Shown in pieces: positions 34,539 to 63,092 of a stretch of 64,000 nt of DNA. This stretch comes from an uncultured virus (IMG/VR IMGVR_UViG_3300031673_000018). Lineage: Duplodnaviria > Heunggongvirae > Uroviricota > Caudoviricetes. Under the pieces are notes generated by a model, which was not told where the DNA came from, searched no databases, and worked only from the letters and a program-made list of their open reading frames with translations. Every line of letters starts with the position of its first letter. The stretch's first letter is position 1. Both the position numbers and the translations under genes were made by a program. The stretch lies in IMG/VR virus record IMGVR_UViG_3300031673_000018; one strand, written 5' to 3'.

Positions 34539-34582
34539 CACCTGTTCGCATTTTTAGGCCAGGTTTACGGATTTGAACCGCA
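34539..34582 (-). ncRNA. Two-hairpin leader element, copy A (upstream of PCNA)
   Basis: UGCGG-UUCAAAU-CCGUA + AACCUG-GCCUAAAAAUGCGAA-CAGGUG. Confidence 0.8.
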
Positions 34583-34602
34583 TGACAGTCTCGAAATAGA
34601 GG

Positions 34603-34621
34603 CCCCCGAGGAAACTCGGGG
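34603..34621 (-). terminator. GC-rich hairpin immediately after the MCM stop
   Basis: CCCCGAG-GAAA-CTCGGGG on the plus strand; function inferred from position. Confidence 0.5.
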
Positions 34622-36454
34622 TTATCTGATTACTACTTGTGCCTTGGCGTCTCTTTTACCTTTCTGGATTATCCTGCCACTGTCTCTTAGGTTGTTCCAT
34701 TCTTCGTAGAATGTGCTTTCGCCGCATAGCGCTATGTCGTTTACTATGTAATGCTTGATGCTAAGCCTGGTTACCCATCCGTCCTCGCTATCGTTGCTCA
34801 TGTTATGTATGAACAACACGATTTCATCTCCGATAGTTTTCAGGTTTCTGTTTGCCCGTGGACCATATAGTTGCACCCTGAATTGTAGAAGATTTTCCCA
34901 TAGACTTATCGCCTTGCATACATCTTCGTCGTTAGCCCAGAGTGTTTTGTTGGCTCCGTCAAACTTTCTATTCGAAAAGTTGACGCAGGCTATTGTGTTC
35001 ACGAACCTCGCCAGCCCTTCCGCGTCCCTTAAGAGAACCATGGGTCTATTCTGCAAGATTCGGCGGCGTATGTCTATCTGATTGTGTAGCTTAAAGATGT
35101 CTTTGAGTCTTTTCTCTTGTTCTTTTGTCATCATGACGCGCTTTATCAGTTTCATGCCTTCAGCAAGGGTGTCCAATTCGTTTTTAATTTTCGTGAAGTC
35201 GATCTGGTCCTCAAGTTCTCCTGTCATTAAATGCATTTTGTCTATAAGTATCTCGTTTTTCACTTGTGTGGCAGTCAATGGTATGAGGCAATCGAATCTT
35301 GTTAGTATCCCTTCCTTGAATTTTAGCTGGCTTCTGAAACTCGTTTCCTCGAGGAAGAAATCTGCCTCTGGATTGCATGCCGTCAGCAGTTGCGTGTTGA
35401 CATCAATGCTTTTCCTATCTCCGCCTTTATGTGTCTCTATGTATTCGCAGTCCATGATCCGCCTGAATAGTGGCATCTTTGCAAATTGTGGATTAAATTC
35501 CTCGACTATAATGCTGCCATTCATGGCTTGATCTAGTATTCCTTCTTGTATTCCTTTACCTATCTTGAAGACGCCCTCGAGGGCGGGTTTGGTCATATCA
35601 TCGACTATAACCATCTTGGGTGCAATTAGTTTGCATATTTTATGTACCTTGGATTTTGCTGTACTTATGTCTCCAGCCAGCATAATGTGTATGCATGCTC
35701 GGTAGTCAAGGTTATTTACAAGCATTCGAGGCGCGTTAGGGCTCATCAAACCATATAAGACCAGTTCCCAAACAGCTTCTCCAACGATCACAATTCTGTT
35801 TAGTTGCTTAGCCAATTTCTCTATGTCTGTCTTCTTTGCTGCCTCGATTCGTTTAAGCTGTTTATCGAAGTCTCCAATGTTGGAATTTATATGTTCTCGA
35901 ATTTCCTGCACTTTACGGTTATGTTGTTGTTGCTCATACTCATTGAGTTCATTTAATGAGGGCTCGGTTCTGAATGGTGTGGCTAATCCCGGGTATTTTT
36001 CGTTTATTATATCCGCGATTTTTTCGATGTATTCTGGTTCCTCGATACATTTTTGGGCTATTCTTGATAGCTGTGTACTGAATTCCTCATTTGTCCCCCA
36101 TCCGGGTTCTTCTTTTACATGGACTCCTCGGGCTATAGTGTTGAAGAAGCCAAATAATTTGTATGTCTGAGAGTATTCCTTGATGTCATTATTTACATAC
36201 CAGTCGGCGAACATATCTTCGCCAGGTTCCTTTACGATTGAGCCGCTTTCTGTAAACTGAACTTCCTTGAAGCTATCAAGCAGTTCATAATACCAGCTTT
36301 GTAAGTATTCTTGTATTTGTGATTTAGGTTTAGCCGCTATAGCTTTGATTTCCTTTGTAGTGTACTCTTTTGGTTTTTCTATTCCTTCTTTGGCCAACGC
36401 CTCTATCCAGAGGGCGTCGACGCCTGCATTTTCCGGTATATCTTTCTTTGCCAT
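34622..36454 (-). CDS. mcm: MCM-family helicase (divergent)
   Basis: IHIMLAGDISTAKS Walker A, GIL..A.NG.IIVEEF Walker B, LLTACNP sensor 1, ILTRFD arginine finger. Confidence 0.8.
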   Translation of the reverse strand: MAKKDIPENAGVDALWIEALAKEGIEKPKEYTTKEIKAIAAKPKSQIQEYLQSWYYELLDSFKEVQFTESGSIVKEPGEDMFADWYVNNDIKEYSQTYKLFGFFNTIARGVHVKEEPGWGTNEEFSTQLSRIAQKCIEEPEYIEKIADIINEKYPGLATPFRTEPSLNELNEYEQQQHNRKVQEIREHINSNIGDFDKQLKRIEAAKKTDIEKLAKQLNRIVIVGEAVWELVLYGLMSPNAPRMLVNNLDYRACIHIMLAGDISTAKSKVHKICKLIAPKMVIVDDMTKPALEGVFKIGKGIQEGILDQAMNGSIIVEEFNPQFAKMPLFRRIMDCEYIETHKGGDRKSIDVNTQLLTACNPEADFFLEETSFRSQLKFKEGILTRFDCLIPLTATQVKNEILIDKMHLMTGELEDQIDFTKIKNELDTLAEGMKLIKRVMMTKEQEKRLKDIFKLHNQIDIRRRILQNRPMVLLRDAEGLARFVNTIACVNFSNRKFDGANKTLWANDEDVCKAISLWENLLQFRVQLYGPRANRNLKTIGDEIVLFIHNMSNDSEDGWVTRLSIKHYIVNDIALCGESTFYEEWNNLRDSGRIIQKGKRDAKAQVVIR

Positions 36455-36456
36455 TT

Positions 36457-36496
36457 CTCACCGTCGCATTTTCGGCGAGCTCGGAGTTGCACCGAG
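36457..36496 (-). ncRNA. Two-hairpin leader element, copy B (upstream of MCM)
   Basis: CUCGG-UGCAACU-CCGAG + CUCGCCG-AAAAUGCGA-CGGUGAG, then AA-AUG. Confidence 0.8.
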
Positions 36497-36655
36497 TTAT
36501 ACCAGGGTTGACCAATGGGTTTGGGAGAACACCTCAAAAGATTTAATCAGTTGGGCGTCCGAACTTAATCGGTTCTCTTCCCCCCATGGTCAGTAAATAC
36601 TCATGTATATACCTCTATTTAACCTTGTTTCGGACATTCTATTTCAGATACACTC

Positions 36656-38241: not shown

Positions 38242-38550
38242 TTAGGCTTCTTCGACATTGACTATCTTGATTTCAAGTTCTCCAGTAGAGATCATTGCTA
38301 TGGCAAGTTTAAGTGCCTCTTCTCGGGTGGGAGCAGCTATTTCTGGGCTATTCAAGTCAACCCAGTATGGATATAATTCGTCCTCATCCAAGTCTTCCCA
38401 TGGTTGAATCTCTCTTACCTTTACCTCGAATTCGTCTTCAGTTGCTTCGTTGACATAATGCTCGAACCTGTCTTTGGATTCCTCTTCATTGGCTGCCTCT
38501 ATGATGGCGCCAATTCTTTTACTCAGGTAGAATCTTGGCATTGTTCTCAT
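38242..38550 (-). CDS. Hypothetical acidic protein
   Basis: Coupled ORF. Confidence 0.55.
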   Translation of the reverse strand: MRTMPRFYLSKRIGAIIEAANEEESKDRFEHYVNEATEDEFEVKVREIQPWEDLDEDELYPYWVDLNSPEIAAPTREEALKLAIAMISTGELEIKIVNVEEA

Positions 38551-39772
38551 CAGGACTAACTTTTTTGATTAACTCGTGGATTTTCTTAGCGCCTTCTTGC
38601 ATATCGCCATTCCAGCCATACTGTGTTTCGATGCGTGCGAGCTCGCCTGCTTTATAGTCTTTCTTGAGGCCTTTGAAGTAAAACTTTGGATCTTCTATCA
38701 GTTCTATGTCGATGCTTGATCCCCTAACAATCATTTTCTGTATGTTCTCCTTGATCAGCGGGGCCAGGATTGTCTCGAGGGATACGCTGCTCCTGAAGTT
38801 CTCAGGAACTTTTTCTCCCTCTTCCTCTTCTTCCTCTTGTTGTCGTTGTTCATTTGCTTCTTTTTGCACCATATCGGCAACGTCTTTTGGTGTGAGCTTT
38901 ATTTTCTCTGGTCCTTCTTCGACCTCGAAACCAAGTTTCTTTGCTTCCTGTTTCAGTTCGTAATATTTCCAAGGTTCCTTTGTTTCCTTGTGCCATGAAT
39001 GGTTGCAATCATCACAGTCTAGTTTATCTTCAGATCCTTGCCATCTTGATTCAGAGATGTTTTTGCTCTCGCATTTGGGACATGGACCGTATTTCTCTAG
39101 AAGCTCATTTTGTTTCTTGATCTTATCCAGAAGGTTTGTAACAAATTCATCTGCTCTCTCTATTGTCCTTATTCCGCTGTAACTGTTTTTTATGCCCTCT
39201 TCTATTTTCTCAAGTAATTCATTCTGTGCTTCAGGGTACTTCGATAGCCTCATTGTGACTTTAGCATATCCCAATGGGATGTCTTTCTTCTCGAACCGCT
39301 CCAGTAACTTCTTTGGCAACATCATCAACGATCTTCTGTCTTTGATGTAGCTTTCCTTTACACCAAGCTGTTCAGCCACTTCCTTTACCGGGATCTTGCC
39401 TACCGTCAACAGTGTGTATATGACTCGAGCTTCCTCCCATTTACTGAAATCCTTGCGGAAAAAGTTCTCCGCAGCAGCTATGATGAGGGCCTCCCTATCG
39501 TCGAGTTCCCTGATCTTCTTCGGTATCTCTTCCCAGGTTTTGCCTAAGAGCTTCTGATGGAAGTATCGTCTTGCTCCAGCAATTAATTCGAACTGTTCTC
39601 CTTTAGGTCTGAAGATCGAGTCTTGTATCTGTCCTGTTTCTCTCAAGCTGTTTAATAGTTTGAGATCAACCGTTAGATTGTCTCGCCATTTAATGATCTC
39701 TGAGTGCAGCGTTACTTGGGAATCTAGTAGTGCTTCTACATCTATTGGCTGTCCATTTCTCAGTTTATCCAT
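38519..39772 (-). CDS. ParB/Srx-domain protein with HTH and Zn ribbon
   Basis: SLRETGQIQ..FRP..ELIAGARR...AENFFRKD..EEA; CPKC/CDDC. Confidence 0.9.
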   Translation of the reverse strand: MDKLRNGQPIDVEALLDSQVTLHSEIIKWRDNLTVDLKLLNSLRETGQIQDSIFRPKGEQFELIAGARRYFHQKLLGKTWEEIPKKIRELDDREALIIAAAENFFRKDFSKWEEARVIYTLLTVGKIPVKEVAEQLGVKESYIKDRRSLMMLPKKLLERFEKKDIPLGYAKVTMRLSKYPEAQNELLEKIEEGIKNSYSGIRTIERADEFVTNLLDKIKKQNELLEKYGPCPKCESKNISESRWQGSEDKLDCDDCNHSWHKETKEPWKYYELKQEAKKLGFEVEEGPEKIKLTPKDVADMVQKEANEQRQQEEEEEEGEKVPENFRSSVSLETILAPLIKENIQKMIVRGSSIDIELIEDPKFYFKGLKKDYKAGELARIETQYGWNGDMQEGAKKIHELIKKVSPDENNAKILPE

Positions 39773-39778: not shown

Positions 39779-39822
39779 CGCCTGCTCGCATTTTTAGGTC
39801 AGGCGTCAGGTTATGAACCTGA
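39779..39822 (-). ncRNA. Two-hairpin leader element, copy D (upstream of ParB)
   Basis: UCAGG-UUCAUAA-CCUGA + CGCCUG-ACCUAAAAAUGCGAG-CAGGCG (compensatory pair). Confidence 0.85.
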
Positions 39823-40404
39823 TTCTTTCTCTATAGCTTTTGCGTCTCTTCTCTTTCTTCTATCTAGTTTTTCCTGCATCACTTCTTCGTAGGGTCTTCT
39901 CTTCTTCTTTATATTTTTCTCTGCTTTGCCTTTCGCAAAATCCACGAGTGTATTTCCTTTAAGGTATTTGTCATAATATTCTCTCTTCATCTTCTTTTGT
40001 TTGAGTGTTCTTCGTAATGCTTTTCTAGCTTCAATATGGGGTTCTTTAAAGGTGAAGGCAAAGTTGACTCTTGCTGTTCCTCCTAGGGTCTGTGGGACCG
40101 GGATCTCTGTTATTATCCAGCCTAGAAATTCACCGAATGCTTTCTTTCTTCCTTTCTTATTTATCCAATAACTGGCTGCATCCCCGGGATTACCATAAAC
40201 GTTTGCTTTCTCGAAAACACTTACTATGCCTCGCTGAGTTTTCCATGACTCACCTGTTGGTTTTATCCCATCAAACGTGTTAATGATATCCCTATATTTC
40301 ATGATCTTTGGTGGTAGCTTTTTGAATTTATCTTCAAGCATCTTTGCCTTGGCTAGAAATATAATGTCGTATAGCTCGTCAGCAAGCTCAAGCAGTGGTT
40401 CCAT
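39811..40404 (-). CDS. Hypothetical basic protein
   Basis: 197-aa ORF whose stop lies within element copy D. Confidence 0.6.
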   Translation of the reverse strand: MEPLLELADELYDIIFLAKAKMLEDKFKKLPPKIMKYRDIINTFDGIKPTGESWKTQRGIVSVFEKANVYGNPGDAASYWINKKGRKKAFGEFLGWIITEIPVPQTLGGTARVNFAFTFKEPHIEARKALRRTLKQKKMKREYYDKYLKGNTLVDFAKGKAEKNIKKKRRPYEEVMQEKLDRRKRRDAKAIEKESGS

Positions 40405-55588: not shown

Positions 55589-55591
55589 CAG

Positions 55592-55969
55592 TCAGTCTTT
55601 AAACAGCCTCGGGAGACCTGAAGCTACTGTGAGCTTCTCACGGGTCTCCTTCGCTATCTTCTGCCAGAACTCTTCTTCCGTTATTTTTGCGCTGTATATT
55701 CTCCGGTGTCCGCCTTTGCCTGTGATCGTCGTGTAATCTAGGAAGTGGTCGTCAACCATGTCGTTGAGGAAGTTTATGACGGACGCTCTGCTGATCGACG
55801 TCCTCTCTCCCTCCAGCCTCATGTTGACTGCTTCCCAGACATCATGGCTACTGCTGCCGTGATCATCTAGATCCGATTTCGACCACAGGTAACGCATCGC
55901 TACTTCTTGGTAGTCCTTCAGTATTAGTCCGAGTCCGGGGCTCTGAGTCAGGTCTATAGATATCTTCAT
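55592..55969 (-). CDS. BlaI/MecI/CopY-like winged-helix regulator
   Basis: QEVAMRYLW..SHDVW..ISRASVINFLNDMV..GKGGHRRIY; start after element copy J. Confidence 0.8.
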   Translation of the reverse strand: MKISIDLTQSPGLGLILKDYQEVAMRYLWSKSDLDDHGSSSHDVWEAVNMRLEGERTSISRASVINFLNDMVDDHFLDYTTITGKGGHRRIYSAKITEEEFWQKIAKETREKLTVASGLPRLFKD

Positions 55970-55974
55970 GTTTT

Positions 55975-56018
55975 CACCTGCTCGCATGTTTAGGTCAGGC
56001 GTCGGGTAGTGAACCCGA
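55975..56018 (-). ncRNA. Two-hairpin leader element, copy J
   Basis: UCGGG-UUCACUA-CCCGA + CGCCUG-ACCUAAACAUGCGAG-CAGGUG. Confidence 0.85.
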
Positions 56019-56163
56019 TTCATCTTAGACTCATCTTCTCCTTTCTCGGCGGCGAGGTTCGCTTCTCGGTGACGGTTTACCATGGCACCTAATCACCATG
56101 TGAGGCAGAAAGCCTAGCGGACTTTTACCGCGTCCCCCTCTACCGCTTTCGAGTGGTCGACCG

Positions 56164-56181
56164 TTATGCCCCGGGGCATAA
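56164..56181. repeat. Perfect palindrome TTATGCCCCGGGGCATAA, copy 3
   Basis: Seen directly. Confidence 0.9.
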
Positions 56182-56224
56182 TTTACCTCTCTTCATCCAG
56201 TAACGGTAACTCTTCTGCATAGGT

Positions 56225-56491
56225 TCACTCTTCTTGTATCTCTGTCTCATAGTAATTTGGATCATATTCGTGTATGACGTCAGCCATGTCTATGAGCTCA
56301 GGGTCCAGTTCCTGTGCCTTGGCTAAAACGATCTCAGGCTCTCCGCCTTGGGTGGATTCGTCGAGCCACCACTCTCTTATTCCCTCCGCTTCGGTTACCT
56401 CGAACCAGAAACCTAGCCGCGCCAGTTGCTTCTCAACAGCCACGGCTCTCTCCCTTAGGCTCGAGACAAACCTGATTGTGACGTCATCCAT
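56225..56491 (-). CDS. Hypothetical protein
   Basis: TAATG-coupled ORF. Confidence 0.6.
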   Translation of the reverse strand: MDDVTIRFVSSLRERAVAVEKQLARLGFWFEVTEAEGIREWWLDESTQGGEPEIVLAKAQELDPELIDMADVIHEYDPNYYETEIQEE

Positions 56492-57072
56492 TAGACGTTT
56501 CCTATCCTTGCTCTCACGTATTCGGCTAACGCCTGTTTCTCGGTGTCGTCTAGGTCTGAGGAGTAGAACTCCTTCTCGAGGCCGATTAGCTCCTTCTCAC
56601 TCATGGCTGCCAGGATCCTCTTCTTGAACTCGTCGTAGTCGTTGGTTGACGTCCACCAGTGGATTAGCGGTAAGTCGCTGTGTCTTCGTTTAAAGATCCT
56701 CCTCAGCTTACCGTCCTCGTAGACTAGATGGAATGCTCCGTGGTATGTGTCTACGATTATGGTGGTTGGGTTCTCTCTCCAGCAGAGGCCTCCGCATTGC
56801 TCGCAGACATAGGAGAGCTCAGCCTGGGCTTTCTCGATCGACCAGTTGACGTTTACTTCGTGTTCTCCCTCGCCTCCGAGGACTATGTTCCTATCCCCGC
56901 TGCGCTGCATCTTGATGAGCTCGACGACTGGGTTGCCCTCCTTATAGTTACGGTAGGCGAACCGCCCATCTTCGAGTTCCGGTGTGAGGCAGCCTTCGCA
57001 GTTCTTTCGGATAAGGCCGTTGATGCATTTCCTGCAGTCACCAGCGATCTCAAGGACGTGGATATCAACCAT
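56491..57072 (-). CDS. Hypothetical Cys-motif protein
   Basis: CRKC, CEGC, CEQC. Confidence 0.6.
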   Translation of the reverse strand: MVDIHVLEIAGDCRKCINGLIRKNCEGCLTPELEDGRFAYRNYKEGNPVVELIKMQRSGDRNIVLGGEGEHEVNVNWSIEKAQAELSYVCEQCGGLCWRENPTTIIVDTYHGAFHLVYEDGKLRRIFKRRHSDLPLIHWWTSTNDYDEFKKRILAAMSEKELIGLEKEFYSSDLDDTEKQALAEYVRARIGNV

Positions 57073-57508
57073 TCACTTCATCTCCGTAGTTGTAGACCGT
57101 TGCACCATATTCTCTGGCGAGTAAGCAGTATTCTTCAACTGAAACAAAGCTGAGATTCCCTAGAAGCGCTGCGGCTTTTATGGATGGGTGCATATACTCG
57201 ACGAGCTGGAACTCCTCTACGCCGAAGGAACCTACATCCCGCTCCACCTTGGCGCCCCTGATCCCTTTTATGTCAGGGTCTACCATCGGGGACTGGAAGG
57301 CCCACCTTACTATCTTGTCCTCCGGGATGGATCTTATATTAACCACCGGTGTACCTGGTTGGATGTATTTCTTCCATCCATCCCCGTATCCTTGGATGGT
57401 TCCTTTTGATGCGATTGATCCATCTGCTCTGTGTTCGTTGGGTTTTATGACGGTCCACCCGTTTTTGTGTATTCTTACAAGGACTCCGTCGATTTTTTCT
57501 TCTCTCAT
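57065..57508 (-). CDS. Hypothetical protein
   Basis: ATG at 57508 (MREEKID) with GGAGG RBS, overlapping the RHH gene's natural stop. Confidence 0.6.
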   Translation of the reverse strand: MREEKIDGVLVRIHKNGWTVIKPNEHRADGSIASKGTIQGYGDGWKKYIQPGTPVVNIRSIPEDKIVRWAFQSPMVDPDIKGIRGAKVERDVGSFGVEEFQLVEYMHPSIKAAALLGNLSFVSVEEYCLLAREYGATVYNYGDEVNG

Positions 57509-57664
57509 TGCTCTTCCTCCCCAGCGGTGCGCTCCATGCGCAGCTTCTCGATGAGGGCTTCCCGGGCAAACGCGCTGATACTCGGGCCAATATCCAACTT
57601 CCTCCATGAGCTTGGTGACATCATCAGCTAGGCCCTTCGGGATGCTAACCGTCGTGTACTTCAT
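57505..57664 (-). pseudogene. Ribbon-helix-helix (CopG/Arc) regulator split by a +1 frameshift
   Basis: MKYTTVSIPKGLADDV..VGYWP continues in the +1 frame as SISAFAREALIEKL..stop at 57505. Confidence 0.75.
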
Positions 57665-57894
57665 TGCTCTGCCCCCACTCGGGTCATCAGGTCTTTAAGG
57701 AAGCTCAACTGTCTTTACCTTCTGTGCATCCAATTGCCGTAGAAGTTCCTCTGTTGAATCTGCGAACTCTTTTCGGCTTGGGAAGGTGAGAAGTATAAGG
57801 CAGTTCTCGCAGTCGTTATCACAAGCTGTTAGATGTTCTTGGCAATTCTCTTTCTTTGGTTTTGACATAGTCACTATATCATCCATTTGTTTTT

Positions 57895-57934
57895 CACCTG
57901 CACGCATTCATCAGGTGCTCAGTAGTGAACTGAG
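57895..57934 (-). ncRNA. Two-hairpin leader element, copy K
   Basis: CUCAG-UUCACUA-CUGAG + CACCUG-AUGAAUGCGUG-CAGGUG. Confidence 0.85.
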
Positions 57935-57935
57935 A

Positions 57936-58160
57936 TTAAACCGGCTGGTTTAACTCCCGAATGGATTCTTTAAAGCATAGTGGGCATTCTATACGCCCCT
58001 CGTATCCCTTCTTGTAGTTCTCCACTGAGCCGTGGATTGGGCAGTCAAAGCGGTAGAATGGTTCGAAGCCTCTCCAGCCGGGGAATTTCCTGTGCTCAAC
58101 ATATCCAGTAAACAAGAAGAATAGCTTCATCTTCCAGTCCACATAAGATTGGTATTTCAT
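57936..58160 (-). CDS. Small Zn-finger protein
   Basis: CPIHG..CPLC. Confidence 0.6.
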   Translation of the reverse strand: MKYQSYVDWKMKLFFLFTGYVEHRKFPGWRGFEPFYRFDCPIHGSVENYKKGYEGRIECPLCFKESIRELNQPV

Positions 58161-58420
58161 TATGTATCCCTACTTGTATCCAGATGTTTATCAATTTCGT
58201 TGATGCCTTCATCGAGAAATTTGAATTGGTCTTTTCCCTCGAGTAGCATGAGGCTGCTACCGCTGTCCCACTTGATGCTGTGCTGAGGAATGGAAACTGG
58301 TATAGTGTATGACTGCTGTAGGAAATCGTATGTGCCTCTGTCTCCGGGTTTGAGCTTGGTGTAGGGATCGTCGGTGTGTATTAGTTCTACTCGTCTTCCA
58401 TGGTTCCTGTAATCCATCAT
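58160..58420 (-). CDS. DUF4314-like small beta-barrel protein
   Basis: GRRVELIHTDDPYTKLKPGDRGT..IKWDSGSSLMLLEGKD. Confidence 0.75.
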   Translation of the reverse strand: MMDYRNHGRRVELIHTDDPYTKLKPGDRGTYDFLQQSYTIPVSIPQHSIKWDSGSSLMLLEGKDQFKFLDEGINEIDKHLDTSRDT

Positions 58421-58427
58421 TTTATTT

Positions 58428-58467
58428 CACCTGCACGCATTCACCAGGTGTCTGCCTCTCGGTCAGA
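58428..58467 (-). ncRNA. Two-hairpin leader element, copy L
   Basis: UCUG-A-CC-GAGA-GG-CAGA + CACCUG-GUGAAUGCGUG-CAGGUG. Confidence 0.85.
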
Positions 58468-58650
58468 AAAAATGGGGTTATGTTATTTCTATTAGATTGT
58501 AGATTATATGGAATCCATAAGCTAGAAGTATCATGGAGCCCGATACGATGGCGGTTGGTATGTCTCGTTTCCTAGTGTAGACTAGACAGATTATGCCTCT
58601 CTCGAAACACACTCCGCAGGCCATTAGGAACAGGACGATGATTAACTTCT

Positions 58651-58989
58651 TCATTGCAGCAGACCACAGACCTCGTCTATCAGGTCGTATGTCTCGTCTT
58701 CCACGATGTTACGCCGGTTGAGGGCATGGAAAAACTCTTGGACGAAAAGCTTCCGGACGTTCATATCTACATCCTTGAGTTCGCTGTTCATCGCGTAAGC
58801 GAGGGATGTCGCCAGTCCCCGGGCTGTTCCCCAGCCTAGCTTAGTGCCCCTGTTGAGGGTGCCAGTGACTTCCATCAAGGTCTCAAGTGTCTCCTTGAAT
58901 TCGTTGACTCCGTCGTCGAGCATCTTCTCATGGTCTCTTAGCACAGTGATCAAGAGATCGATGATGTCCATCTTCTCAAGATTGTACAT
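58651..58989 (-). CDS. Hypothetical helical protein
   Basis: EKMDIIDLLITVLRDHEKMLD coiled-coil-like start. Confidence 0.6.
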   Translation of the reverse strand: MYNLEKMDIIDLLITVLRDHEKMLDDGVNEFKETLETLMEVTGTLNRGTKLGWGTARGLATSLAYAMNSELKDVDMNVRKLFVQEFFHALNRRNIVEDETYDLIDEVCGLLQ

Positions 58990-59245
58990 CTAGGTGGGTC
59001 CCCACAAACTCTGTCAGGCTCATCGTGCGATCATCTTTTGCGCTCCAGTGTGCTACAGTGTTCTCGCAGAATGGGCATTGGAGATCAGCTTCCTTCTCAG
59101 TTCCTTCGACCTGTTCTGAAGCTGACCAGTCGATGCATTCTCCGCCGTATCTCTTCTCGCTCTTGTATGCAGTGTACTTGTTTTCCTCGGTTACGTAGAC
59201 AGTTACTTCCTCGTAGTCTTTTTCGCATTTGTTACATGTAGGCAT
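58976..59245 (-). CDS. Zn-ribbon hypothetical protein
   Basis: CNKC..CPFC; follows element copy M. Confidence 0.6.
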   Translation of the reverse strand: MPTCNKCEKDYEEVTVYVTEENKYTAYKSEKRYGGECIDWSASEQVEGTEKEADLQCPFCENTVAHWSAKDDRTMSLTEFVGTHLDVQS

Positions 59246-59251
59246 TCTTCT

Positions 59252-59692
59252 TCACCTGCTCGCGTGTTTAGGCCAGGTGTCAGGTAGTGAACCTGATTGT
59301 TCTGCCTCGACCATAGCGCTAACTATGTTTGGTGATATCTGGAGACCGTGTATAGTATCCAGAACTGGGGTTAGTTTTCCTTCGGAGATTAGTGAAACGA
59401 TCTGATCGTGTGCCTTTACGATGTCCTCGGATTCATTGGCTCTGTAATACCCGAAACTGCTGGCCCCTAATTTGGTTGTCTTGAATCTGCTTTCATCCTC
59501 AATCTTGAATATCATGGTTTCATATTTCCAATGCACATCATCGATGCGATCTCTAAGGAACCCAAAGAATTCTAGGATGTTCTCTGGATCCTCAATAACT
59601 CTGATGGTGCTGATCTCCCACTTTGCATCTCCGACATCTACGTAATTGCGTTTCAACACTCTTGGGTGCAGATCGGTATCTTCAGTTATCAA
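59252..59692 (-). CDS. Hypothetical protein ending inside element copy M
   Basis: C-terminus DTWPKHASR is encoded by the element. Confidence 0.55.
   Translation of the reverse strand: MITEDTDLHPRVLKRNYVDVGDAKWEISTIRVIEDPENILEFFGFLRDRIDDVHWKYETMIFKIEDESRFKTTKLGASSFGYYRANESEDIVKAHDQIVSLISEGKLTPVLDTIHGLQISPNIVSAMVEAEQSGSLPDTWPKHASR
59253..59296 (-). ncRNA. Two-hairpin leader element, copy M
   Basis: UCAGG-UUCACUA-CCUGA + CACCUG-GCCUAAACACGCGAG-CAGGUG. Confidence 0.85.
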
Positions 59693-59769
59693 GGCTTCAT
59701 CGTTTCCTAGCCAGCACTACTCGCATGACCGTCATCTCTATCTCGGTTAGAGGCTTGGCTATCTCTATC

Positions 59770-60528
59770 TCATCCTTCGATAGTTGATTGTCTGTACTCA
59801 TCTTTCTTAACCTTCTTCTTCTCGCGCTTCCTCATCGTCGGGGCGTTGTCGATGAACTTTTGTAGACCTACCTTAGGGGCCTCAAACTTCGGCATGATCT
59901 CCTCGAGGCGCTCCTTAGACAGAGTCTTCCACATAGTCGGGTATCCTAATGGCTGCCACACCACGGTGCCCTCCCAATACTCGAGGGCGATGCTGTTGCA
60001 GTGGACGTTGAGGCTCGGTATGCCGTAGAGTATCGCATTCATGGTCATGTAGACATACATGCGGAAGTCGATGTCCTGGTTAACGTAGATGAAGTTGAGG
60101 CAGCCAACACGCTTGGCGTAGATCTCGGCGGCGCCGATCATGAATCGCCCGCAGCCTGCAGCGGGGTCGTTAAGCCGTTGGGATTCAGCCATCAGTTGTT
60201 CGTCTGTTTGCACGCCGATGGTCATCTCGCACATCATCCTCACGATAGGCATGGGGGTGAAGAACTGTCCTGCCCGGGAGTTGAGTTGCTCTGTCTCTAT
60301 GAGGTATGACCCGAACATGTCATCCCATTCGCCGTGCCTGGGATCCTTCTGGAATTCCTGATGGGCTAACCAGATCTCCCTTATGAGCTCCATGTTCTCT
60401 TTGTAGTCAGCTGCTGTCTCGGGTGTGAAGTCCTGTGCTTCTTTGATGATCTTAGTGTAGATCTGTCTATCCAGTTTCTTGGTTCCGGTTATCGGCTCGA
60501 GGTTCTTCAGTCTCTTTATCCAGCTCAT
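59770..60528 (-). CDS. N6-adenine DNA methylase-like protein (HsdM-type SAM-binding half)
   Basis: GQFFTPMPI, LNDPAAGCGRF, NQDID; no NPP(Y/F) motif seen. Confidence 0.75.
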   Translation of the reverse strand: MSWIKRLKNLEPITGTKKLDRQIYTKIIKEAQDFTPETAADYKENMELIREIWLAHQEFQKDPRHGEWDDMFGSYLIETEQLNSRAGQFFTPMPIVRMMCEMTIGVQTDEQLMAESQRLNDPAAGCGRFMIGAAEIYAKRVGCLNFIYVNQDIDFRMYVYMTMNAILYGIPSLNVHCNSIALEYWEGTVVWQPLGYPTMWKTLSKERLEEIMPKFEAPKVGLQKFIDNAPTMRKREKKKVKKDEYRQSTIEG

Positions 60529-61018
60529 CGTAGTAGCACCATATCTCTGGGTGTCCTGGGTTAGGGCAGTTGCCCCCGTATTCGCATGGGTAAACCTTGC
60601 ACTTTACGGGACAACTTAGACTCCTATTCCATCCATGGTCGCATGGGAGGTCGTCTTCTCGAGTGTAGTCCGGCGTCTTATGCATGAGGTTCCACTCGTT
60701 GTTCCCCCACCTTAAAGCCTCAGCAAAGTCCTTCGTCGTGAAGGCTATCGCTTCTGTTCCTGTCGGCTTATGGGTGATTACTTGCCATGACTCGGCTTCG
60801 ATGTCCTCCCCATAACCGTGCAGCACAACCGTCCTGCTGAAGGTTCGGTAGAGTTCCCATACTTTGTCGACTAGGTTCCTCCGTAGACTCAGCTGGTGGT
60901 TGGGGAGTATGGTTGTTATCTTATCGGCTGGTATCCATGCGTAGTAGTCAACCTCATGCATCGAGTACCCGGGGTTATCCGGGTCATCTCTTTGGAAAGC
61001 GTATTCACATATCCTCAT
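60467..61018 (-). CDS. Hypothetical protein
   Basis: 183-aa ORF with Cys-rich end. Confidence 0.55.
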   Translation of the reverse strand: MRICEYAFQRDDPDNPGYSMHEVDYYAWIPADKITTILPNHQLSLRRNLVDKVWELYRTFSRTVVLHGYGEDIEAESWQVITHKPTGTEAIAFTTKDFAEALRWGNNEWNLMHKTPDYTREDDLPCDHGWNRSLSCPVKCKVYPCEYGGNCPNPGHPEIWCYYDELDKETEEPRADNRNQETG

Positions 61019-61022
61019 TTCG

Positions 61023-61430
61023 TTAATCCTCTGTTGACTCGAATCTATACTCTTTAGCCTCGAAGTCCTTGATCGTTGCGATCACTTCATGGTTGCTGAA
61101 CATGAATAGCTCAGGATACATGAAGGAATCAAACCCATCCCTTTTCAGCATCCTCTCTATCAGCTGGAAATCTTCTTCATCCTCGTAATGATAGCTTAGG
61201 TACATCACGCTATTCGAATAATTGGGATGATTCACCCAGTCTAAGAGTATCTTCTTACCGTCTTTGACTAGATACATCTGTGCATCTAGACCGAAGATCA
61301 TAGCTTGCCAGATGATCTTCAATGGCGTCCATGGAGGATCCTCCCAATTCTTAGGTGCGTATTGTTCTTCATGTGTTTCATCGATCTGATCTCCGCAGAT
61401 TGAACAGGGCTGTCTGATGTATCTTTTCAT
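61023..61430 (-). CDS. Hypothetical protein
   Basis: ORF in operon. Confidence 0.55.
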   Translation of the reverse strand: MKRYIRQPCSICGDQIDETHEEQYAPKNWEDPPWTPLKIIWQAMIFGLDAQMYLVKDGKKILLDWVNHPNYSNSVMYLSYHYEDEEDFQLIERMLKRDGFDSFMYPELFMFSNHEVIATIKDFEAKEYRFESTED

Positions 61431-61434
61431 CTTA

Positions 61435-61866
61435 TCACTTCTTCACGAAGGGCCTCCACCACTGGATGGCTTTCTGGTTGGCGAGCTTGTCGCCTTCCTT
61501 ATCCTCTATGCAGTAGTTGAGGACTCCGTTAGGGAGATCTGTGTCTAGTAGGTTGACCTCGAGGTTTCTGAACTGGGCTACTAGGAATCGGTGCTTGTAC
61601 CTGAGGATGGTTTCGATGAGCTTCTCAAGCCCTCTGGAATGCACCCTCACGGTGCCGTTGACGTTGTATTCCTCGTCTATGAACTCGGTGGTATCCTTCA
61701 CTTCGAATAGGTCCTCGAACTCCTCTGGGGAGAAGGCAAGTATCACCGCTTTCTTTCCCTCCTTAAAGGCGGGATGAAAGGCAGGGTCTACCTGGATCTC
61801 CAGTGTGTGGTAGTCGTCGTCAGGACCCCATCTGTGGGTCTTTACTTCTGTCTCTGCTATCTTCAT
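61435..61866 (-). CDS. Hypothetical protein
   Basis: Follows element copy N. Confidence 0.6.
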   Translation of the reverse strand: MKIAETEVKTHRWGPDDDYHTLEIQVDPAFHPAFKEGKKAVILAFSPEEFEDLFEVKDTTEFIDEEYNVNGTVRVHSRGLEKLIETILRYKHRFLVAQFRNLEVNLLDTDLPNGVLNYCIEDKEGDKLANQKAIQWWRPFVKK

Positions 61867-61871
61867 CTAAT

Positions 61872-61915
61872 CACCTGCTCGCATGTTTAGGTCAGGTGTC
61901 TGCCTCTCGGTCAGA
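61872..61915 (-). ncRNA. Two-hairpin leader element, copy N
   Basis: UCUG-A-CC-GAGA-GG-CAGA + CACCUG-ACCUAAACAUGCGAG-CAGGUG. Confidence 0.85.
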
Positions 61916-62119
61916 ATAAATGAGGGGGTCTACCGTAGAATCCTTGATCTTGTTTTGATGCCGATTATCTCGAGCTCCCATTCCAGTTCATCTGGTTTCT
62001 GTTTCTTGTATTTATCCCCGGTTACTGGGTCTATGCCCTTGTCTCTAAGGTATTGGTTATTGATCCTGTGCTGCTCGATGATCTTCTCCGCTATCTCAAG
62101 GTAAGCTATGTCCATGGTT

Positions 62120-62521
62120 TCATGTTTGCGCATTAACAATCTTTGATATCCCTTCCTGTATTGAATTCAGTTTCTCCATGATCATCACCATCACACGGTT
62201 TTTCTCGCTGAGGGATTCTATCTTTGCCCTCCTGTGTGGGAGGTTGGTGGAGAGGTGATAAGGTCTACCCTCAAGGGAGCATCTTATTAGGTGCGTGTAG
62301 ATGCGAGATATCTCCTCGAGTAGATTGTGGTGGTGTTGACATAATGGAATCTTGGTTTGCTTGATGACTCTTATATCATCTGGTGTGAGGTCTGGTAGAG
62401 TTTTTAGTAAGGTCTGTGCTATAAGATGATGATCCCCATGCGACGGGAGACCACACATTACACATATTACATCCACTGTATCTCCCTCACTAGATCTCTT
62501 CACAGTATAATCCAAGCTCAA
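62120..62521 (-). CDS. Hypothetical protein, possibly HNH-like Zn finger
   Basis: CVMC..HH...IPLCQHHH. Confidence 0.5.
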   Translation of the reverse strand: MSLDYTVKRSSEGDTVDVICVMCGLPSHGDHHLIAQTLLKTLPDLTPDDIRVIKQTKIPLCQHHHNLLEEISRIYTHLIRCSLEGRPYHLSTNLPHRRAKIESLSEKNRVMVMIMEKLNSIQEGISKIVNAQT

Positions 62522-62837
62522 GCATGGCCTCGACTTTAAATGGACTGTTCATAAGCCTGAACCGTATCACCTGTTTGTTCCAACTATCCTCTGAGCAGTC
62601 TTTCCTACATGCCTTGCAGAGCTCGTCGGCTTTCTTCATACGATCCTCCGGCTCTTTGGCTGGTCGAATAAGCCTGGTGCCCAGCTGTGTGCCGTATTTC
62701 TTGAAGTGTTCTTGGCACATGTAGGCGTGTATTCCGAGTGTGGTTTGGGCGTCATACTCTGCCGGCTCCGGTGGCTCACGGCCCTCTTGTTTGCAGAAGT
62801 CACAATCAGGTAGCTCGGTCATTGGTGTACTTTCCAT
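62490..62837 (-). CDS. Hypothetical Zn-finger protein
   Basis: CDFC..YDA.T..G..AYMC..H. Confidence 0.6.
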   Translation of the reverse strand: MESTPMTELPDCDFCKQEGREPPEPAEYDAQTTLGIHAYMCQEHFKKYGTQLGTRLIRPAKEPEDRMKKADELCKACRKDCSEDSWNKQVIRFRLMNSPFKVEAMLELGLYCEEI

Positions 62838-62843
62838 CTGGTT

Positions 62844-63092
62844 TCACCTGCTCGCATGTTTAGGCCAGGTGTCTGCCTTTCGGTCAGAAAAAGATGGGGC
62901 ATCATCAGCGTATGCTATCTCTGAATGCCCTTGGCTGCAGAACTGAGACTCGAACTTTGCCTCTGTTCCGTCAGTGAACCGAATTGTGAGACGGTCAAAT
63001 ATGTCACCCCAAACTTTAGGCTCTTCGATTGTTTCCTTGGTCACTTTGGCTATGGTTTTACCTTCTAGTTTCTTCATGGTTCCATTCCTCAA
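62844..63092 (-). CDS. Hypothetical protein ending inside element copy O
   Basis: C-terminus DTWPKHASR is encoded by the element. Confidence 0.5.
   Translation of the reverse strand: MRNGTMKKLEGKTIAKVTKETIEEPKVWGDIFDRLTIRFTDGTEAKFESQFCSQGHSEIAYADDAPSFSDRKADTWPKHASR
62845..62888 (-). ncRNA. Two-hairpin leader element, copy O
   Basis: UCUG-A-CC-GAAA-GG-CAGA + CACCUG-GCCUAAACAUGCGAG-CAGGUG. Confidence 0.85.

Follow-up and report, generated by a model that had tools for sequence, protein, structure and literature searches.

What purpose is served by a short, repeated two-hairpin sequence that stands ahead of one early gene after another in the genome of an uncultured archaeal virus? The stretch of DNA analysed here (the window) comprises 64,000 nt of a circular contig of ~110 kb on which at least 20 copies of this element are present. 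Fifteen of them lie in the window, all on the minus strand and 40 or 44 nt long when measured from the first base of the first hairpin (P1) to the last base of the second (P2); number, coordinates, strand and length were all as proposed in a first-pass annotation of the sequence. The downstream genes that it had named, namely the PCNA, MCM, ParB-like, ATP-dependent ligase and BlaI-like winged-helix genes, were recovered as well.

Copies of the element in the window

The copies are listed below, with bit scores from the covariance model described in the next section.

34539-34582, minus strand: copy 1, upstream of the PCNA gene (33737-34513); 7-nt-loop P1, long P2 loop; 59.5 bits
36457-36496, minus strand: copy 2, upstream of the MCM helicase gene (34622-36454); 7-bp P2 (CUCGCCG/CGGUGAG, one of the pairs a G.U) whose loop has 9 nt, AAAAUGCGA; start codon 2 nt past P2; 46.1 bits
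38180-38219, minus strand: copy 3, upstream of a 105-aa ORF with TTG start; GNRA-type P1, short P2 loop GUGAAUGCGUG, T7 run directly 5'
39779-39822, minus strand: copy 4, upstream of the ParB-like gene (38519-39772); 72.5 bits
46390-46429, minus strand: copy 5, upstream of a 551-aa ORF (44729-46384) with TTG start; P2 is CUCACC/GGUGAG
47491-47534, minus strand: copy 6, upstream of the ATP-dependent DNA ligase gene (46485-47486); CCUCUG/CAGAGG forms P2, the GAGG being the Shine-Dalgarno (SD) sequence
49222-49265, minus strand: copy 7, upstream of a 170-aa ORF (48702-49214); T6 run 5'
50342-50385, minus strand: copy 8, upstream of a 326-aa ORF (49355-50335) with GTG start
55262-55305, minus strand: copy 9, between the Alba gene (55322-55588) and a 248-aa ORF (54510-55256); T-rich box 5'
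55975-56018, minus strand: copy 10, upstream of the BlaI-like winged-helix gene (55592-55969), with the Alba gene coming next; 72.2 bits
57895-57934, minus strand: copy 11, upstream of a 63-aa ORF (57695-57886); 7-nt-loop P1, short P2 loop
58428-58467, minus strand: copy 12, upstream of the DUF4314 gene (58160-58420); GNRA-type P1, short loop, CCCCAUUUUUU box 5'
59253-59296, minus strand: copy 13, upstream of an 89-aa zinc-finger-like ORF (58976-59245)
61872-61915, minus strand: copy 14, upstream of a 143-aa ORF (61435-61866); GNRA-type P1
62845-62888, minus strand: copy 15, upstream of a 115-aa ORF (62490-62837); GNRA-type P1

Fold and covariation

A 21-nt degenerate core pattern gave 10 matches against 0.08 expected, and 10 or more were obtained in none of 100 shuffles. 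A covariance model, which the first-pass annotation had suggested building, was derived from the 15 copies and, with filters disabled, applied to both strands of the window; it returned exactly these 15 (46-72.5 bits, E 3.7e-17 to 3e-10), and no 16th copy was found in the window, the next match scoring 11.3 bits (E 0.42). By the same model the copies are confined to the early/replication half of the genome and the structural half of the window contains none, which bears out their claimed absence from the structural module.

Standard pairs occupy 96.4% of the 165 cells in the MAFFT alignment of the 15 copies, compared with 73.6 ± 1.9% in shuffled alignments (observed level reached in 0/500), and pairing falls to 18-39% when the 3' partner is slid by 1-3 columns. 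The covariation earlier described for P1 and P2 was recovered as two-sided changes at 9 of the 11 pairs, and at 10 of 11 in a set of 55 distinct copies that includes related metagenome contigs, where 95.8% of 598 cells are paired (74.5% in shuffles, 19-37% with slid partners). The two hairpins constitute the minimum-energy fold of every window copy, with a mean energy of -15.0 kcal/mol on the minus versus -12.9 kcal/mol on the plus strand (mean z -2.4). Six G-U positions had been reported on the minus strand, and the 15 copies indeed contain 6 G.U pairs; the stem wobbles (16 G.U versus 3 A.C) favour the sense strand.

The general anatomy proposed for P1 and P2 held, except that the P2 loop of copy 2 has 9 nt and that about one third of the P1 hairpins are of a GNRA type, in which a GNRA tetraloop caps a 4+2 bp stem containing a bulged A. 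The two P2 loop forms interchange at orthologous sites and have in common A-AUGCG-W-R, located 2 nt from the stem. Of the 15 window copies, 14 contain AUGCG, as had been stated, the exception being copy 13 with ACGCG; family-wide, the variants are AUGUG, AUGCA, ACGCG and AACGA. No Rfam family was matched, even at E <= 5, in line with the initial failure to recognise one. These results support the conclusion that the element is a real, structured, strand-specific motif without a matching Rfam family.

Shine-Dalgarno sequences and start codons

The 3' strand of P2 is an SD-like block of purines, normally spaced from the start codon. It usually reads CAGGUG; the variant strands CAGAGG, CAGGAG, GGUGAG and CGGUGAG each contain another SD-like word (GAGG, GGAG or GGUGAG), with a matching change in the 5' strand. 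The location of the SD in this strand was correctly described at first pass, while the spacing of 2-7 nt required widening, an ORF-opening start codon being found 2-9 nt past P2 in 43 of the 55 distinct copies. The ORF begins 15-42 nt from P2 in 8 of the 55, so the SD of that gene itself lies outside P2; the same applies to the PCNA gene, which starts 25 nt past P2 of copy 1. Genes without the element have a GGAGG or GGUGA-type SD in 26 of 72 cases, against a background of 8%.

At least 12 of the 55 copies contain the end of an upstream ORF that is 100 codons long or longer. Two window copies have the stop at the UGA of GGUGA: copy 13, which is spanned entirely by ORF 59252-59692, and copy 15 (ORF 62844-63092); ORF 39811-40404 terminates within P1 of copy 4. 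Such endings may be counted in favour of transcription of the element into RNA.

A predicted third helix

The 5' flank can pair with the start-codon region to form a further helix (P0), and P0, P1 and P2 together give a predicted three-way junction. At least 4 flank-to-flank pairs are present in the minimum-energy fold of 42 of 54 copies (12 of 15 in the window), a figure to be read against a null that also yields ~5 pairs. The energy gained from the flanks was -4.57 kcal/mol, versus -3.47 ± 0.23 kcal/mol when the downstream flanks were permuted among copies (0/300). For the copies without a T-run (see below), the cognate duplex energy was -4.82 versus -3.23 (0/5000 permutations), whereas cognate flanks of T-run copies paired no better than non-cognate ones (p 0.33). 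The type of start codon covaries with its P0 partner (AUG/CAU, GUG/CAC, UUG/CAA), and at least two of the three start-codon bases are paired in the minimum-energy fold in only 17 of 47 copies. There is thus moderate but significant support for a P0-closed junction that would hide the SD and the start region.

Within the window, P0 helices include that of copy 15 (CCAUCU/AGAUGG; 12 flank pairs) and that of copy 5, where GUCAAU/AUUGAC and GUU/AAC lie over the UUG start (46443-46433 with 46389-46380; 9 P0 pairs, -25.3 kcal/mol). P0 covers the AUG of the gene behind copy 7 (UCCAUUU/AAAUGGA; 49275-49269 with 49216-49210) and the GUG behind copy 8 (CACAG/CUGUG), and it reads AGGCA/UGCCU in copy 13 and UCAUUUA/UUAGAUGA in copy 14. 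Copy 1 has 4 P0 pairs, and P0 is absent from the minimum-energy fold of copy 4.

T-run boxes and transcription

A T-run lies flush against P1 in 19 of the 55 copies and is lacking in the other 36. In 17 of the 19, a C-rich box with the T-run ends 0-1 nt before P1, which places it 23-24 nt upstream of the P2 loop. The T-run may represent a TATA-like box or a terminator, and in several copies it stands behind a hairpin and has the look of a terminator. If transcription started ~23 nt downstream of the T-run, those mRNAs would lose P1 and half of P2. That the T-run region is contained in the RNA is suggested by the compensatory changes in P1, which persist in T-run copies (UCUG/CAGA versus CCAG/CUGG), and by complementarity between the T-run and the A-rich spacer. 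The box, a plain T-run after a C-rich stretch, differs from the canonical TATA boxes of this virus, exemplified by the following contrast feature, which is separate from the element:

54492 (within 54465-54500), minus strand: canonical TATA box TTTATATA

It is located 28 nt before the start codon of an element-less gene (53475-54464), and similar boxes occur at 51962, 31396 and 30552. No canonical TATA box was found 20-40 nt upstream of any element.

Elements at recombination junctions

The ends of homology blocks shared by related viruses cluster at the elements: 27 of 94 interior block ends lie within 40 nt of one, compared with 7.7% of the sequence. Cassettes of gene plus element have been gained, lost and moved between relatives; for example, a cassette is inserted at copy 9 in relatives L018 and L007, and the DUF4314 gene is deleted flush with copy 12 in L018. 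Orthologous sites mix P1 types, P2 loop types and flanks in varied combinations. Two copies in L005 have even the first 11 nt of coding sequence in common. The copy at L010:5119-5162 has neither an SD nor a downstream ORF and stands at the head of a candidate non-coding RNA. The element is matched by a CRISPR spacer from a Bathyarchaeia genome bin; for the CRISPR spacer in L026 the best match is copy 14 (30/36 contiguous).

The first-pass annotation did not include P0, the T-run box of about one third of the copies, the overlaps with the 3' ends of upstream ORFs or the role at recombination junctions.

Discussion

We consider it probable, if only just, that the element is a cis-acting mRNA structure controlling the translation initiation of early-gene cassettes. 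The post-transcriptional regulon originally envisaged is supported in part, by the structured, strand-specific nature of the motif, its SD content and its location in the early half. In the proposed mechanism, the element would be carried in the sense-strand mRNA at the 5' edge of an early or replication gene or small operon, where the SD block in P2 (usually AGGUGA) would pair with CACCUG, an upstream sequence that mimics the anti-SD of rRNA. P1, a hairpin without sequence constraint, would abut P2 with no spacer, and in most copies the 5' flank and the spacer/start-codon region would close the three-way junction through P0. Thus folded, the element would keep the ribosome off its site. It might be opened by ribosomes finishing the upstream ORF and melting it, i.e. 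by translational coupling, or be governed by a factor that recognises P2 at its conserved apical loop and holds the element shut, melts it or cuts it. The conserved P2 loop is probably the binding site of this putative factor, which the first-pass annotation had pictured as a protein, nuclease or ligand, and is probably read in the folded state, since the loop motif is fixed at 2 nt from the stem and not fixed relative to the SD. Lowered initiation, the trans-acting factor and the direction of control are what we infer from this arrangement. No loop-binding factor and no RegA- or RegB-like protein was found with Pfam, PHROGs or NCBIfam, by which most early proteins remained unnamed.

Translational coupling by secondary structure is familiar from the RNA phage MS2 and bacterial ribosomal-protein operons, where upstream pairing closes a downstream ribosome site that translation of the upstream ORF opens, by structures idiosyncratic to each operon. 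The present element resembles these in that, among the 36 copies lacking a T-run, 21 adjoin or overlap an upstream ORF that is 60 codons long or longer. It differs in being one conserved module with a conserved loop, and in that non-coding T-run boxes precede one third of the copies, so that no upstream ribosome can act there. The RNase III sites of T7 early genes, long irregular duplexes cut by the host enzyme, are likewise repeated intercistronic structures in a long early viral transcript, but here two short hairpins and a closing helix are built around an SD and a start codon, and RNase III is not known from most archaea. In T4, according to the excerpt of PMC3014915, the sites of RegA are rich in A+U and lack structure, and GGAG is all that RegB requires; the gp43 operator and genes e and I-TevI have the SD inside a hairpin, and RegB targets the SD. 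Common to T4 and the present virus is the post-transcriptional control suggested for many early and replication genes through a common translation-initiation signal, whereas the one-off hairpins described for T4 in that excerpt contrast with one covarying three-helix fold with a conserved apical loop, repeated ~20 times in an archaeal virus. The PeSLs of T4-type phages, as presented in the abstracts of PMC2839356 and PMC4122927, are also small conserved stem-loop cassettes dispersed between early genes of unknown function, at points where related phages differ by the insertion, deletion or exchange of modules; they combine a sigma-70 promoter with a terminator hairpin and act on transcription, unlike the present element, which carries an SD, RNA-type covariation and G.U pairs and no recognisable promoter.

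Other explanations have to be weighed against translational control. The elements stand at nearly every sub-operon boundary of a 35-kb one-strand block without canonical promoters, and an endoribonuclease of host or virus might read the junction and the P2 loop and cut the early transcripts into gene-sized pieces, their 3' ends protected by the P1 hairpin and their 5' ends bearing the P2 hairpin. Such RNA punctuation, which is compatible with translational control, we regard as unlikely: it leaves unexplained the SD in the 3' strand of P2, the placement of P0 over the start region and the 2-9-nt spacing, no nuclease was found with Pfam, PHROGs or NCBIfam, and no bulge-helix-bulge could be drawn in the element by inspection, even though the abutting P1 and P2 would offer a natural cut point, P1 is constrained in shape only, as for an exonuclease block, and the loop is conserved in its folded register. 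Host RNase III sites between the early genes of phage T7 would be comparable. A precedent is RegB of T4, a phage nuclease targeting early-gene SDs in the excerpt of PMC3014915. A little less likely again is a switch between alternative transcripts, in which read-through RNA would carry the whole lock and be silent, and a promoter overlapping the T-run box, with its start site within the element and close to the first P2-loop purine, would produce a short leader with the SD free. The distance from T-run box to P2 loop in 17 of the 19 T-run copies equals the usual archaeal TATA-to-start distance of 23-24 nt, these genes have no other promoter-like box, and a small TFIIB/TFB-cyclin-like protein is encoded at L010:1730-2068; against this stand the 36 copies without a T-run, the dissimilarity to the virus's TTTATATA boxes, the terminator-like T-runs behind hairpins and the signs that the T-run region is in the RNA. 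The same excerpt offers a precedent in T4: early transcripts of genes e and I-TevI keep the ribosome site sequestered, and those initiated at an internal late promoter leave it free (PMC3014915).

We find it improbable that the element is a portable ribosome-binding cassette without a trans regulator, whose hairpins insulate the SD and tune its strength, with uniformity arising through gene conversion or recombination and the loop kept by common descent. The mixing of types at orthologous sites, the mobile gene-and-element units, the excess of homology-block ends and the L005 pair all speak for it, but the loop is conserved across viruses only 75-90% identical in flanking genes and across two loop lengths, a fully paired SD with a paired start region would be odd for a constitutive ribosome site, and the L010:5119-5162 copy, lacking both an SD and a downstream ORF, heads a candidate non-coding RNA. 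Very unlikely, in our estimate, is a DNA-level element such as a hairpin or cruciform promoter served by its own polymerase (as with phage N4 early promoters), a REP/IS200-like single-stranded hairpin acted on by a transposase or replication protein, or the double-stranded operator of a dimeric repressor. Dispersed one-strand repeats forming hairpins, missing canonical promoters and the several winged-helix proteins and the TFB-like protein encoded by the virus would suit it; yet complementarity is retained by half-sites whose sequences vary freely, and orthologous sites have arms 11 or 15 nt apart, neither of which suits a single dimer on duplex DNA. Moreover, each sense-strand G.U would be an A.C mismatch on the template strand, the 3' arm stays SD-like at SD-type spacing from start codons, and no polymerase or transposase was found in the 74.5 kb examined of the ~110-kb genome.

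Under the preferred reading, that of translational control, the same ~45-nt cassette heads many genes and would on that account also be a site of homologous exchange between viruses. The element may represent a repeated RNA lock on viral gene starts that also marks the points at which cassettes are swapped between related viruses.

A recurrent element of two hairpins

The 15 minus-strand copies reported by the first-pass annotation were all found where it had placed them, each of 40 or 44 nt when counted from the start of P1 to the end of P2. The architecture ascribed to them was borne out in every one: a 17-nt hairpin (P1) is followed, with zero spacer, by a stem-loop (P2) of 6-7 bp, and the 3' strand of P2 is mostly CAGGUG followed by A, with the start codon a few bases further on. 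A 21-nt degenerate core pattern gave 10 matches in the window against 0.08 expected. When both strands of the window were searched, with filters off, using R1, a covariance model built from the MAFFT alignment of the 15 copies (A1), exactly these 15 copies were returned with scores of 46-72.5 bits; the next candidate scored 11.3 bits with an E value of 0.42, so there is no further copy within the window. The asserted absence of the element from the structural module also held, R1 finding no copy among the plus-strand structural genes, to which the tail-tube-like gene at 14627-15418 belongs.

The two stems, P1 and P2, are real. In A1, 96.4% of 165 cells carry standard pairs, compared to 73.6 ± 1.9% after shuffling of the 3' letters (0 of 500 shuffles reached the observed value) and 18-39% when the partner was slid by 1-3 columns; nine of the 11 pairs have changed on both sides, which upholds the stem covariation proposed initially. 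A scan of metagenome contigs with a 25-nt pattern gave matches on 18 contigs, and R1, applied to the window and 18 related loci, returned 61 matches, 55 of them distinct. Among these 55 copies, 95.8% of 598 cells pair (shuffles 74.5 ± 0.9%; slid partners 19-37%) and compensatory change is seen in 10 of the 11 pairs, with P2 alone reaching 98.8% paired cells and covariation in five of its six pairs. The relatives contribute pair sets of their own, GAGAA/UUCUC and CUAGG/CCUAG in P1, CUCCUG/CAGGAG and AACCCCG/GGGGGUU in P2.

The minimum-energy structure consists of two hairpins in 15/15 window copies, with a mean z of -2.4 against dinucleotide shuffles and a mean fold energy of -15.0 kcal/mol on the minus strand versus -12.9 on the plus strand. 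P1 has one of two shapes: its stem is either 5 bp long with a 7-nt loop, or 4+2 bp long, interrupted by a bulged A and capped by a GAAA or GAGA tetraloop. The stem pairs of the 55 copies comprise 557 Watson-Crick, 16 G.U, 3 A.C and 22 A.G cells, the last being mostly the bulged A of the tetraloop-type P1. The excess of G.U over A.C, which confirms the wobble bias noted earlier, suggests that it is the sense strand that folds.

Relatives, copy number and probable host

The window belongs to contig Ga0307376_10000128 (110,543 bp), whose last 186 nt (locus L011) are 99.5% identical to its first 186 nt (L010), and this terminal overlap implies a complete genome, circular or terminally redundant, of ~110.4 kb. 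The minus-strand early gene block continues across the contig junction into L010, where R1 detected five further minus-strand copies at contig positions 485-5162; with the 15 window copies, this makes at least 20 copies in the 74.5 kb seen of ~110.4 kb. The flanking genes of the relatives are 75-90% identical to those of the window. Scans of viral contigs (IMG/VR-type) with three element patterns gave 0 matches, an MCM protein query confirmed no related locus in viral contigs, and no DNA match to the element-bearing stretch was found in deposited phage and virus genomes; the one MCM match there, in Haloarcula tailed virus 3, is distant (24% identity over 24% of the protein). The sequence was found in six DNA sequencing runs, with no RNA run among the matches listed.

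A search of the genome collection yielded a single match, a 36-nt CRISPR spacer on L026, a contig from a genome bin labelled Bathyarchaeia. The array (L026:6335-7171) has at least 10 repeats of 37 nt, and the spacer extends from the end of P1 across the whole of P2 and takes in the Shine-Dalgarno sequence (SD). It shares 30 contiguous bases with window 61871-61900 and 28 with several other copies; since the match to the window is incomplete, the true protospacer should lie in a relative. R1 found no other copy of the element in the genome of L026. Most of the Atlas clusters nearest to the BlaI-like protein carry the label Candidatus Bathyarchaeota, and the host is likely a member of the Bathyarchaeia, an assignment based on binned data. 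A host spacer against a signal present in many copies means that such repeats also leave the virus vulnerable.

Among 151 genomes sampled from the class of L026, one other genome, G076, gave R1 matches. Its two copies (L028:1135-1180 and L029:1375-1420) are divergent and GC-richer, with P2 CUCCUG/CAGGAG, the loop AAAACGAG and the SD GGAG, and are found on short contigs, flanked on one side by a thymidylate kinase gene and on the other by a 105-aa ORF with an ATP-dependent DNA ligase gene after it. Divergent copies in a second genome of the same class indicate that the element family is wider than this virus clade.

On the strand of the element spacer, five to six of the eight spacers of the L026 array terminate in an SD-like block and ATG or ATGA (for example ...GAGGAGAAGGAAAAATGA); these spacers seem to have been taken from translation-initiation regions, and a PAM, an RNA-derived origin or chance may account for this. 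In the window itself, 916-3740 and 20866-22614 encode a methyltransferase, two group-1 glycosyltransferases and a carbamoyltransferase beside structural genes, which may serve virion or host-surface modification.

Position of the ribosome-binding site

A start codon opening an ORF follows P2 at 2-9 nt in 43 of the 55 distinct copies and at 15-42 nt in eight; none was found in the other four, one of which is truncated by the contig end. The 3' strand of P2 varies (CAGAGG, CAGGAG, GGUGAG, CGGUGAG) and the 5' strand changes to match, all these variants being words complementary to the conserved 3' tail of 16S rRNA. The host 16S gene in G001, a Bathyarchaeia genome, is present as a 5' fragment, so the anti-SD sequence is taken from general knowledge and from SD usage. 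Genes lacking the element use free GGAGG or GGUGA-type sites, a consensus 5-mer being present at -20 to -3 in 26 of 72 such genes versus 8% of random positions. In most element-headed genes, the SD thus lies within a covarying helix at a functional distance from the start codon, the arrangement of an SD-sequestering hairpin.

The genes downstream of elements include those for PCNA, MCM, a ParB-like protein, ATP-dependent DNA ligase and DUF4314, as well as a BlaI-like winged-helix gene followed by an Alba gene; C5 methylase and HerA/FtsK-like ATPase genes are located farther along in element-headed operons. Genes internal to the sub-operons overlap stop-to-start and carry no element, which makes the element a mark of the 5' edge of each cassette.

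Two sites deviate in their initiation signals. In the PCNA copy 34539 (window 34520-34545, minus strand), the P2 3' strand ACAGGU has a possible alternative partner in an ACCUGU downstream, and the true start codon lies 25 nt beyond P2, behind its own AAGGG block; the arrangement is kept in a relative (L001:7058), and this copy may be an alternative-hairpin variant of the element. In two orthologues of 58976-59245 (L024:224-276 and L018:5735-5787), ATA CCT ACA TG. stands against ATG CCT ACA TGT of the window, the remaining N-terminus being conserved, and the ATA may reflect a non-canonical or shifted start.

Upstream context and transcription

A T-run, defined as at least four T within 14 nt before P1, is present in 19/55 copies and ends 0-1 nt from P1 in 17 of these 19, usually preceded by a C-rich box such as AACCCCAUUUUU. 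Window copy 58428 is one with a T-run. No long ORF reaches P1 in 16 of the 19 T-run copies; among the 36 that lack the T-run, 21 adjoin or overlap an ORF of 60 codons or more on their upstream side. Upstream ORFs with a length of 100 codons or above terminate within the element in at least 12/55 copies, and in two from the window, 59253 and 62845, the stop is the UGA contained in GGUGA. The mRNAs of such ORFs must contain at least part of the element, and the overlap provides direct evidence, at the level of sequence, that the element is transcribed at least in part.

Canonical TATA boxes (TTTATATA or TTAATATA) are located on the minus strand at 54492, 51962, 31396 and 30552, 28-37 nt before the start codons of element-less genes, a distance implying leaderless or short-leader mRNAs. 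No canonical TATA was found in, or 20-40 nt upstream of, any element, and a scan for bacterial-type promoters and terminators gave counts at or below those of shuffles. Two of the starts behind TATA boxes have ACCUAA(ACC) in front of them, a sequence similar to CCUAAAC in the P2 loop. Outside the window, L010:1730-2068 (minus strand) encodes a 112-aa early protein with a single match to a TFIIB/TFB cyclin repeat (Pfam PF00382, 26.4 bits, E 7e-6; PDB TFIIB chains, E 2e-4). It has no zinc ribbon, the part of TFB needed for polymerase recruitment, and a TFB fragment of this kind, made by the virus, could divert host transcription or block it.

A predicted third helix around the start codon

When each copy was folded with 15-18 nt of its 5' flank and 18-22 nt of its 3' flank, the flanks paired together around the start codon, forming a further helix, P0, in the window copies as follows (copies named by start coordinate, all on the minus strand).

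P0 helices predicted in five window copies
49222, minus strand: UCCAUUU / AAAUGGA, covering the AUG start
62845, minus strand: CCAUCU / AGAUGG, covering the AUG start
46390, minus strand: GUCAAU / AUUGAC plus GUU / AAC, covering the UUG start
50342, minus strand: CACAG / CUGUG, covering the GUG start
59253, minus strand: AGGCA / UGCCU, covering the last two bases of AUG and the next codon

The L004 orthologue of 50342, which has a different upstream module, forms P0 as UCUUGGU/GCCAAGA. P0 is strong in window copy 46390 and absent from 39779. At least four P0 pairs occur in the minimum-energy folds of 12/15 window copies and 42/54 distinct copies, and the number of P0 pairs (5.87) exceeds that obtained with permuted downstream flanks (4.55 ± 0.48; 0/200). 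With the core constrained, the flanks gain -4.57 kcal/mol versus -3.47 ± 0.23 when permuted (0/300), and form 6.00 pairs versus 4.97 (3/300). The cognate duplex energy stands out in copies without a T-run (-4.82 vs -3.23; 0/5000 permutations); in T-run copies, cognate and non-cognate flanks are alike (-4.59 vs -4.43, p 0.33), and a generic CCAUUUU / AAAAUGG complementarity is common to all of them. In the minimum-energy fold, only 17/47 copies pair at least two of the three start-codon bases. Taken as a prediction from folding, P0 has moderate support as a real helix, and together with P1 and P2 it would form a three-way junction in which the SD is buried in P2 and the start region in P0.

The P2 loop

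The two loop forms originally described, RCCUAAAMAUGCGAR and RUGAAUGCGUR, were recovered; the AUGCG within them proved not to be invariant across the family, where AUGUG, AUGCA, ACGCG and AACGA also occur. The forms swap at orthologous sites (for example L022:2229 vs L010:3031; 38180 vs L001:9995) and share A-AUGCG-W-R, 2 nt from the P2 3' strand. In 36457 and 46390, whose stem register is shifted, it is the distance of the motif from the stem, not from GGUGA, that stays constant, which suggests that the loop is read in the folded state.

A search of the window for an antisense partner of the P2 loop gave 22 matches at up to three mismatches compared to 16.7 expected, all those with 0-1 mismatch being elements themselves. 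In two Bathyarchaeia genomes, the only exact match to the loop, sought as a host mimic, was the spacer itself, with two 1-mismatch matches (G076 C13 and G001 C47). Searches for a loop-binding factor with the PHROGs and NCBIfam HMMs named almost none of the early proteins, and the BlaI-like protein and Alba show no mutual similarity.

One copy, L010:5119-5162, has no SD and directly follows a T6 run. After it come ~110 nt without a same-strand ORF of at least 50 aa, ending in a GC-rich hairpin plus a T7 run, and the 176-nt stretch as a whole (L010:4990-5165, minus strand) has a fold energy of -57.8 kcal/mol (z -3.1). As a candidate small RNA headed by the element, it could be a decoy for a putative loop binder.

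Comparison with known RNA and DNA elements

The first-pass annotation had recognised no known RNA family in the element, and none of the elements had a match in Rfam 15. The whole window gave 0 matches at gathering thresholds, four related loci with six copies gave 0 matches at E <= 5, and window 54400-64000 gave five weak matches (E 1.3-3.7), none overlapping an element. ARAGORN found 0 tRNA or tmRNA genes in the window, and a tRNA-like element was rejected for want of an ARAGORN cloverleaf; by inspection, the order of arms around P0 mirrors that of tRNA. The element does not resemble a riboswitch: the P1/P2 junction is 0 nt, neither the length nor the sequence of the remaining junction strands is constant, the conserved part is the apical loop of P2, and no Rfam riboswitch matched. 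Kink-turns and K-loops, the sites of L7Ae, contain tandem sheared G.A pairs beside a stem (UGAUGA...CUGA-type boxes); the positions flanking P2 show G.A, A.G, G.G and A.A, by inspection without a GA/AG pattern. A CRISPR repeat or Cas6 substrate was rejected as well, the 37-nt repeat of L026 being, by inspection, unlike the element, which occurs there only as a spacer.

The P2 loop is not the TATA box of leaderless mRNAs, because at orthologous sites the long form gives way to a short loop without an A+T-rich box, and the spacing to the start codon is variable. Its AUG is not the start codon, being in frame with the gene in only three window copies (by inspection). On inspection, two further readings were inconsistent across copies, namely a kissing interaction of the P1 loop with the P2 loop and CCUAAA as a GNRA receptor, and no bulge-helix-bulge site can be drawn.

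Cassette exchange at the element

The relatives differ from the window by whole cassettes that start at an element. In L018 and L007, an extra 190-codon ORF with an element on each side is inserted between Alba and the homologue of 54510-55256; in L020, the Alba module is joined at an element to the homologue of 61435-61866, these modules being distant in the window; L018 has a 226-nt deletion, comprising the DUF4314 gene, flush with element 58428; and L005 carries two copies alike even in the first 11 nt of the coding sequence. Of 94 interior homology-block ends, 27 fall no more than 40 nt from an element, where elements with these margins make up 7.7% of the sequence (binomial p 1.4e-9), a count to be read with the general tendency of homology blocks to stop in intergenic DNA. 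Breakpoints of homology and indels of whole cassettes thus coincide with elements, as in PeSLs; the PeSL cassettes of T4-type phages show matching exchange behaviour, as far as outlined in PMC2839356 and PMC4122927. As with those PeSLs, a regulatory element is linked to cassette exchange, here in a different domain of life.

Proposed function and competing explanations

The best-supported interpretation is that the element is an mRNA structure that would limit the access of ribosomes to the SD and the start codon. Its structure, strand, SD content and position come from the present analysis; the proposed effect on initiation is drawn from such structures in bacteria and phages. Opening could occur by two routes, both of which fit the anatomy of the element: upstream ribosomes would melt those copies that overlap an ORF, and a putative factor reading the P2 loop would act on all copies, by repressing, activating or cutting.

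The weightiest rival is that the element is a processing site in the transcript. Next in weight comes an internal-promoter switch like that described for the T4 genes e and I-TevI in PMC3014915. A passive, portable ribosome site whose uniformity is kept by recombination ranks third. Last is a hairpin or operator acting at the DNA level. An operator for a dimeric repressor on double-stranded DNA is disfavoured because the half-sites vary (CACCUG, CGCCUG, CCUCUG, CUCACC, CUCGCCG and CUCCUG, each with its matching partner) and the arms are 11 or 15 nt apart at orthologous positions. A template-strand hairpin, whether an N4-type promoter or a single-stranded DNA hairpin of the REP or IS200-IS605 kind, is disfavoured by the wobble pairs, whose ratio of 16 G.U to 3 A.C speaks for the sense strand; the scanned ORFs, from the 74.5 kb seen of ~110.4 kb, contained neither a polymerase nor a transposase domain.

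Beyond the translational lock of single genes, a more far-reaching and distinctly tentative proposal is that some 20 early and replication cassettes of this Bathyarchaeia virus are under one post-transcriptional switch, in which three-way junctions would lock SD and start codon, a single P2-loop factor would open, shut or cut all of them, and the SD-less copy L010:5119-5162 would serve as decoy. The loop factor might then be encoded by the virus (Alba, for example, which lies in an element-headed operon) or be a host protein. Were this true, it would, as far as the searches show, be without precedent among archaeal viruses as a translational regulon, and would constitute a new class of archaeal cis-regulatory RNA that is also a recombination joint for cassette shuffling. 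A full-text literature search on SD hairpins of archaeal viruses gave nothing relevant among the matches listed, and the main text of the Bathyarchaeia virus survey PMC10848311 mentions no such motif, hairpin or promoter, nor this contig.

An SD-sequestering operator combined with a recombination cassette is a kind of mechanism known from phages; what is new is its recurrence in an archaeal virus as a covarying three-way junction. To our knowledge, few cis-regulatory RNAs are known in archaea, and the post-transcriptional timing of gene expression in archaeal viruses is largely unknown. With ~20 copies in one genome and more than 50 distinct ones across relatives, the fold can be defined from natural variation without experiments. 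If it gates translation, the element would provide a compact, portable off-switch for archaeal ribosome sites, its P2 loop would be a handle for finding an RNA-binding regulator, and its presence would mark the early genes of uncultivated Bathyarchaeia viruses.
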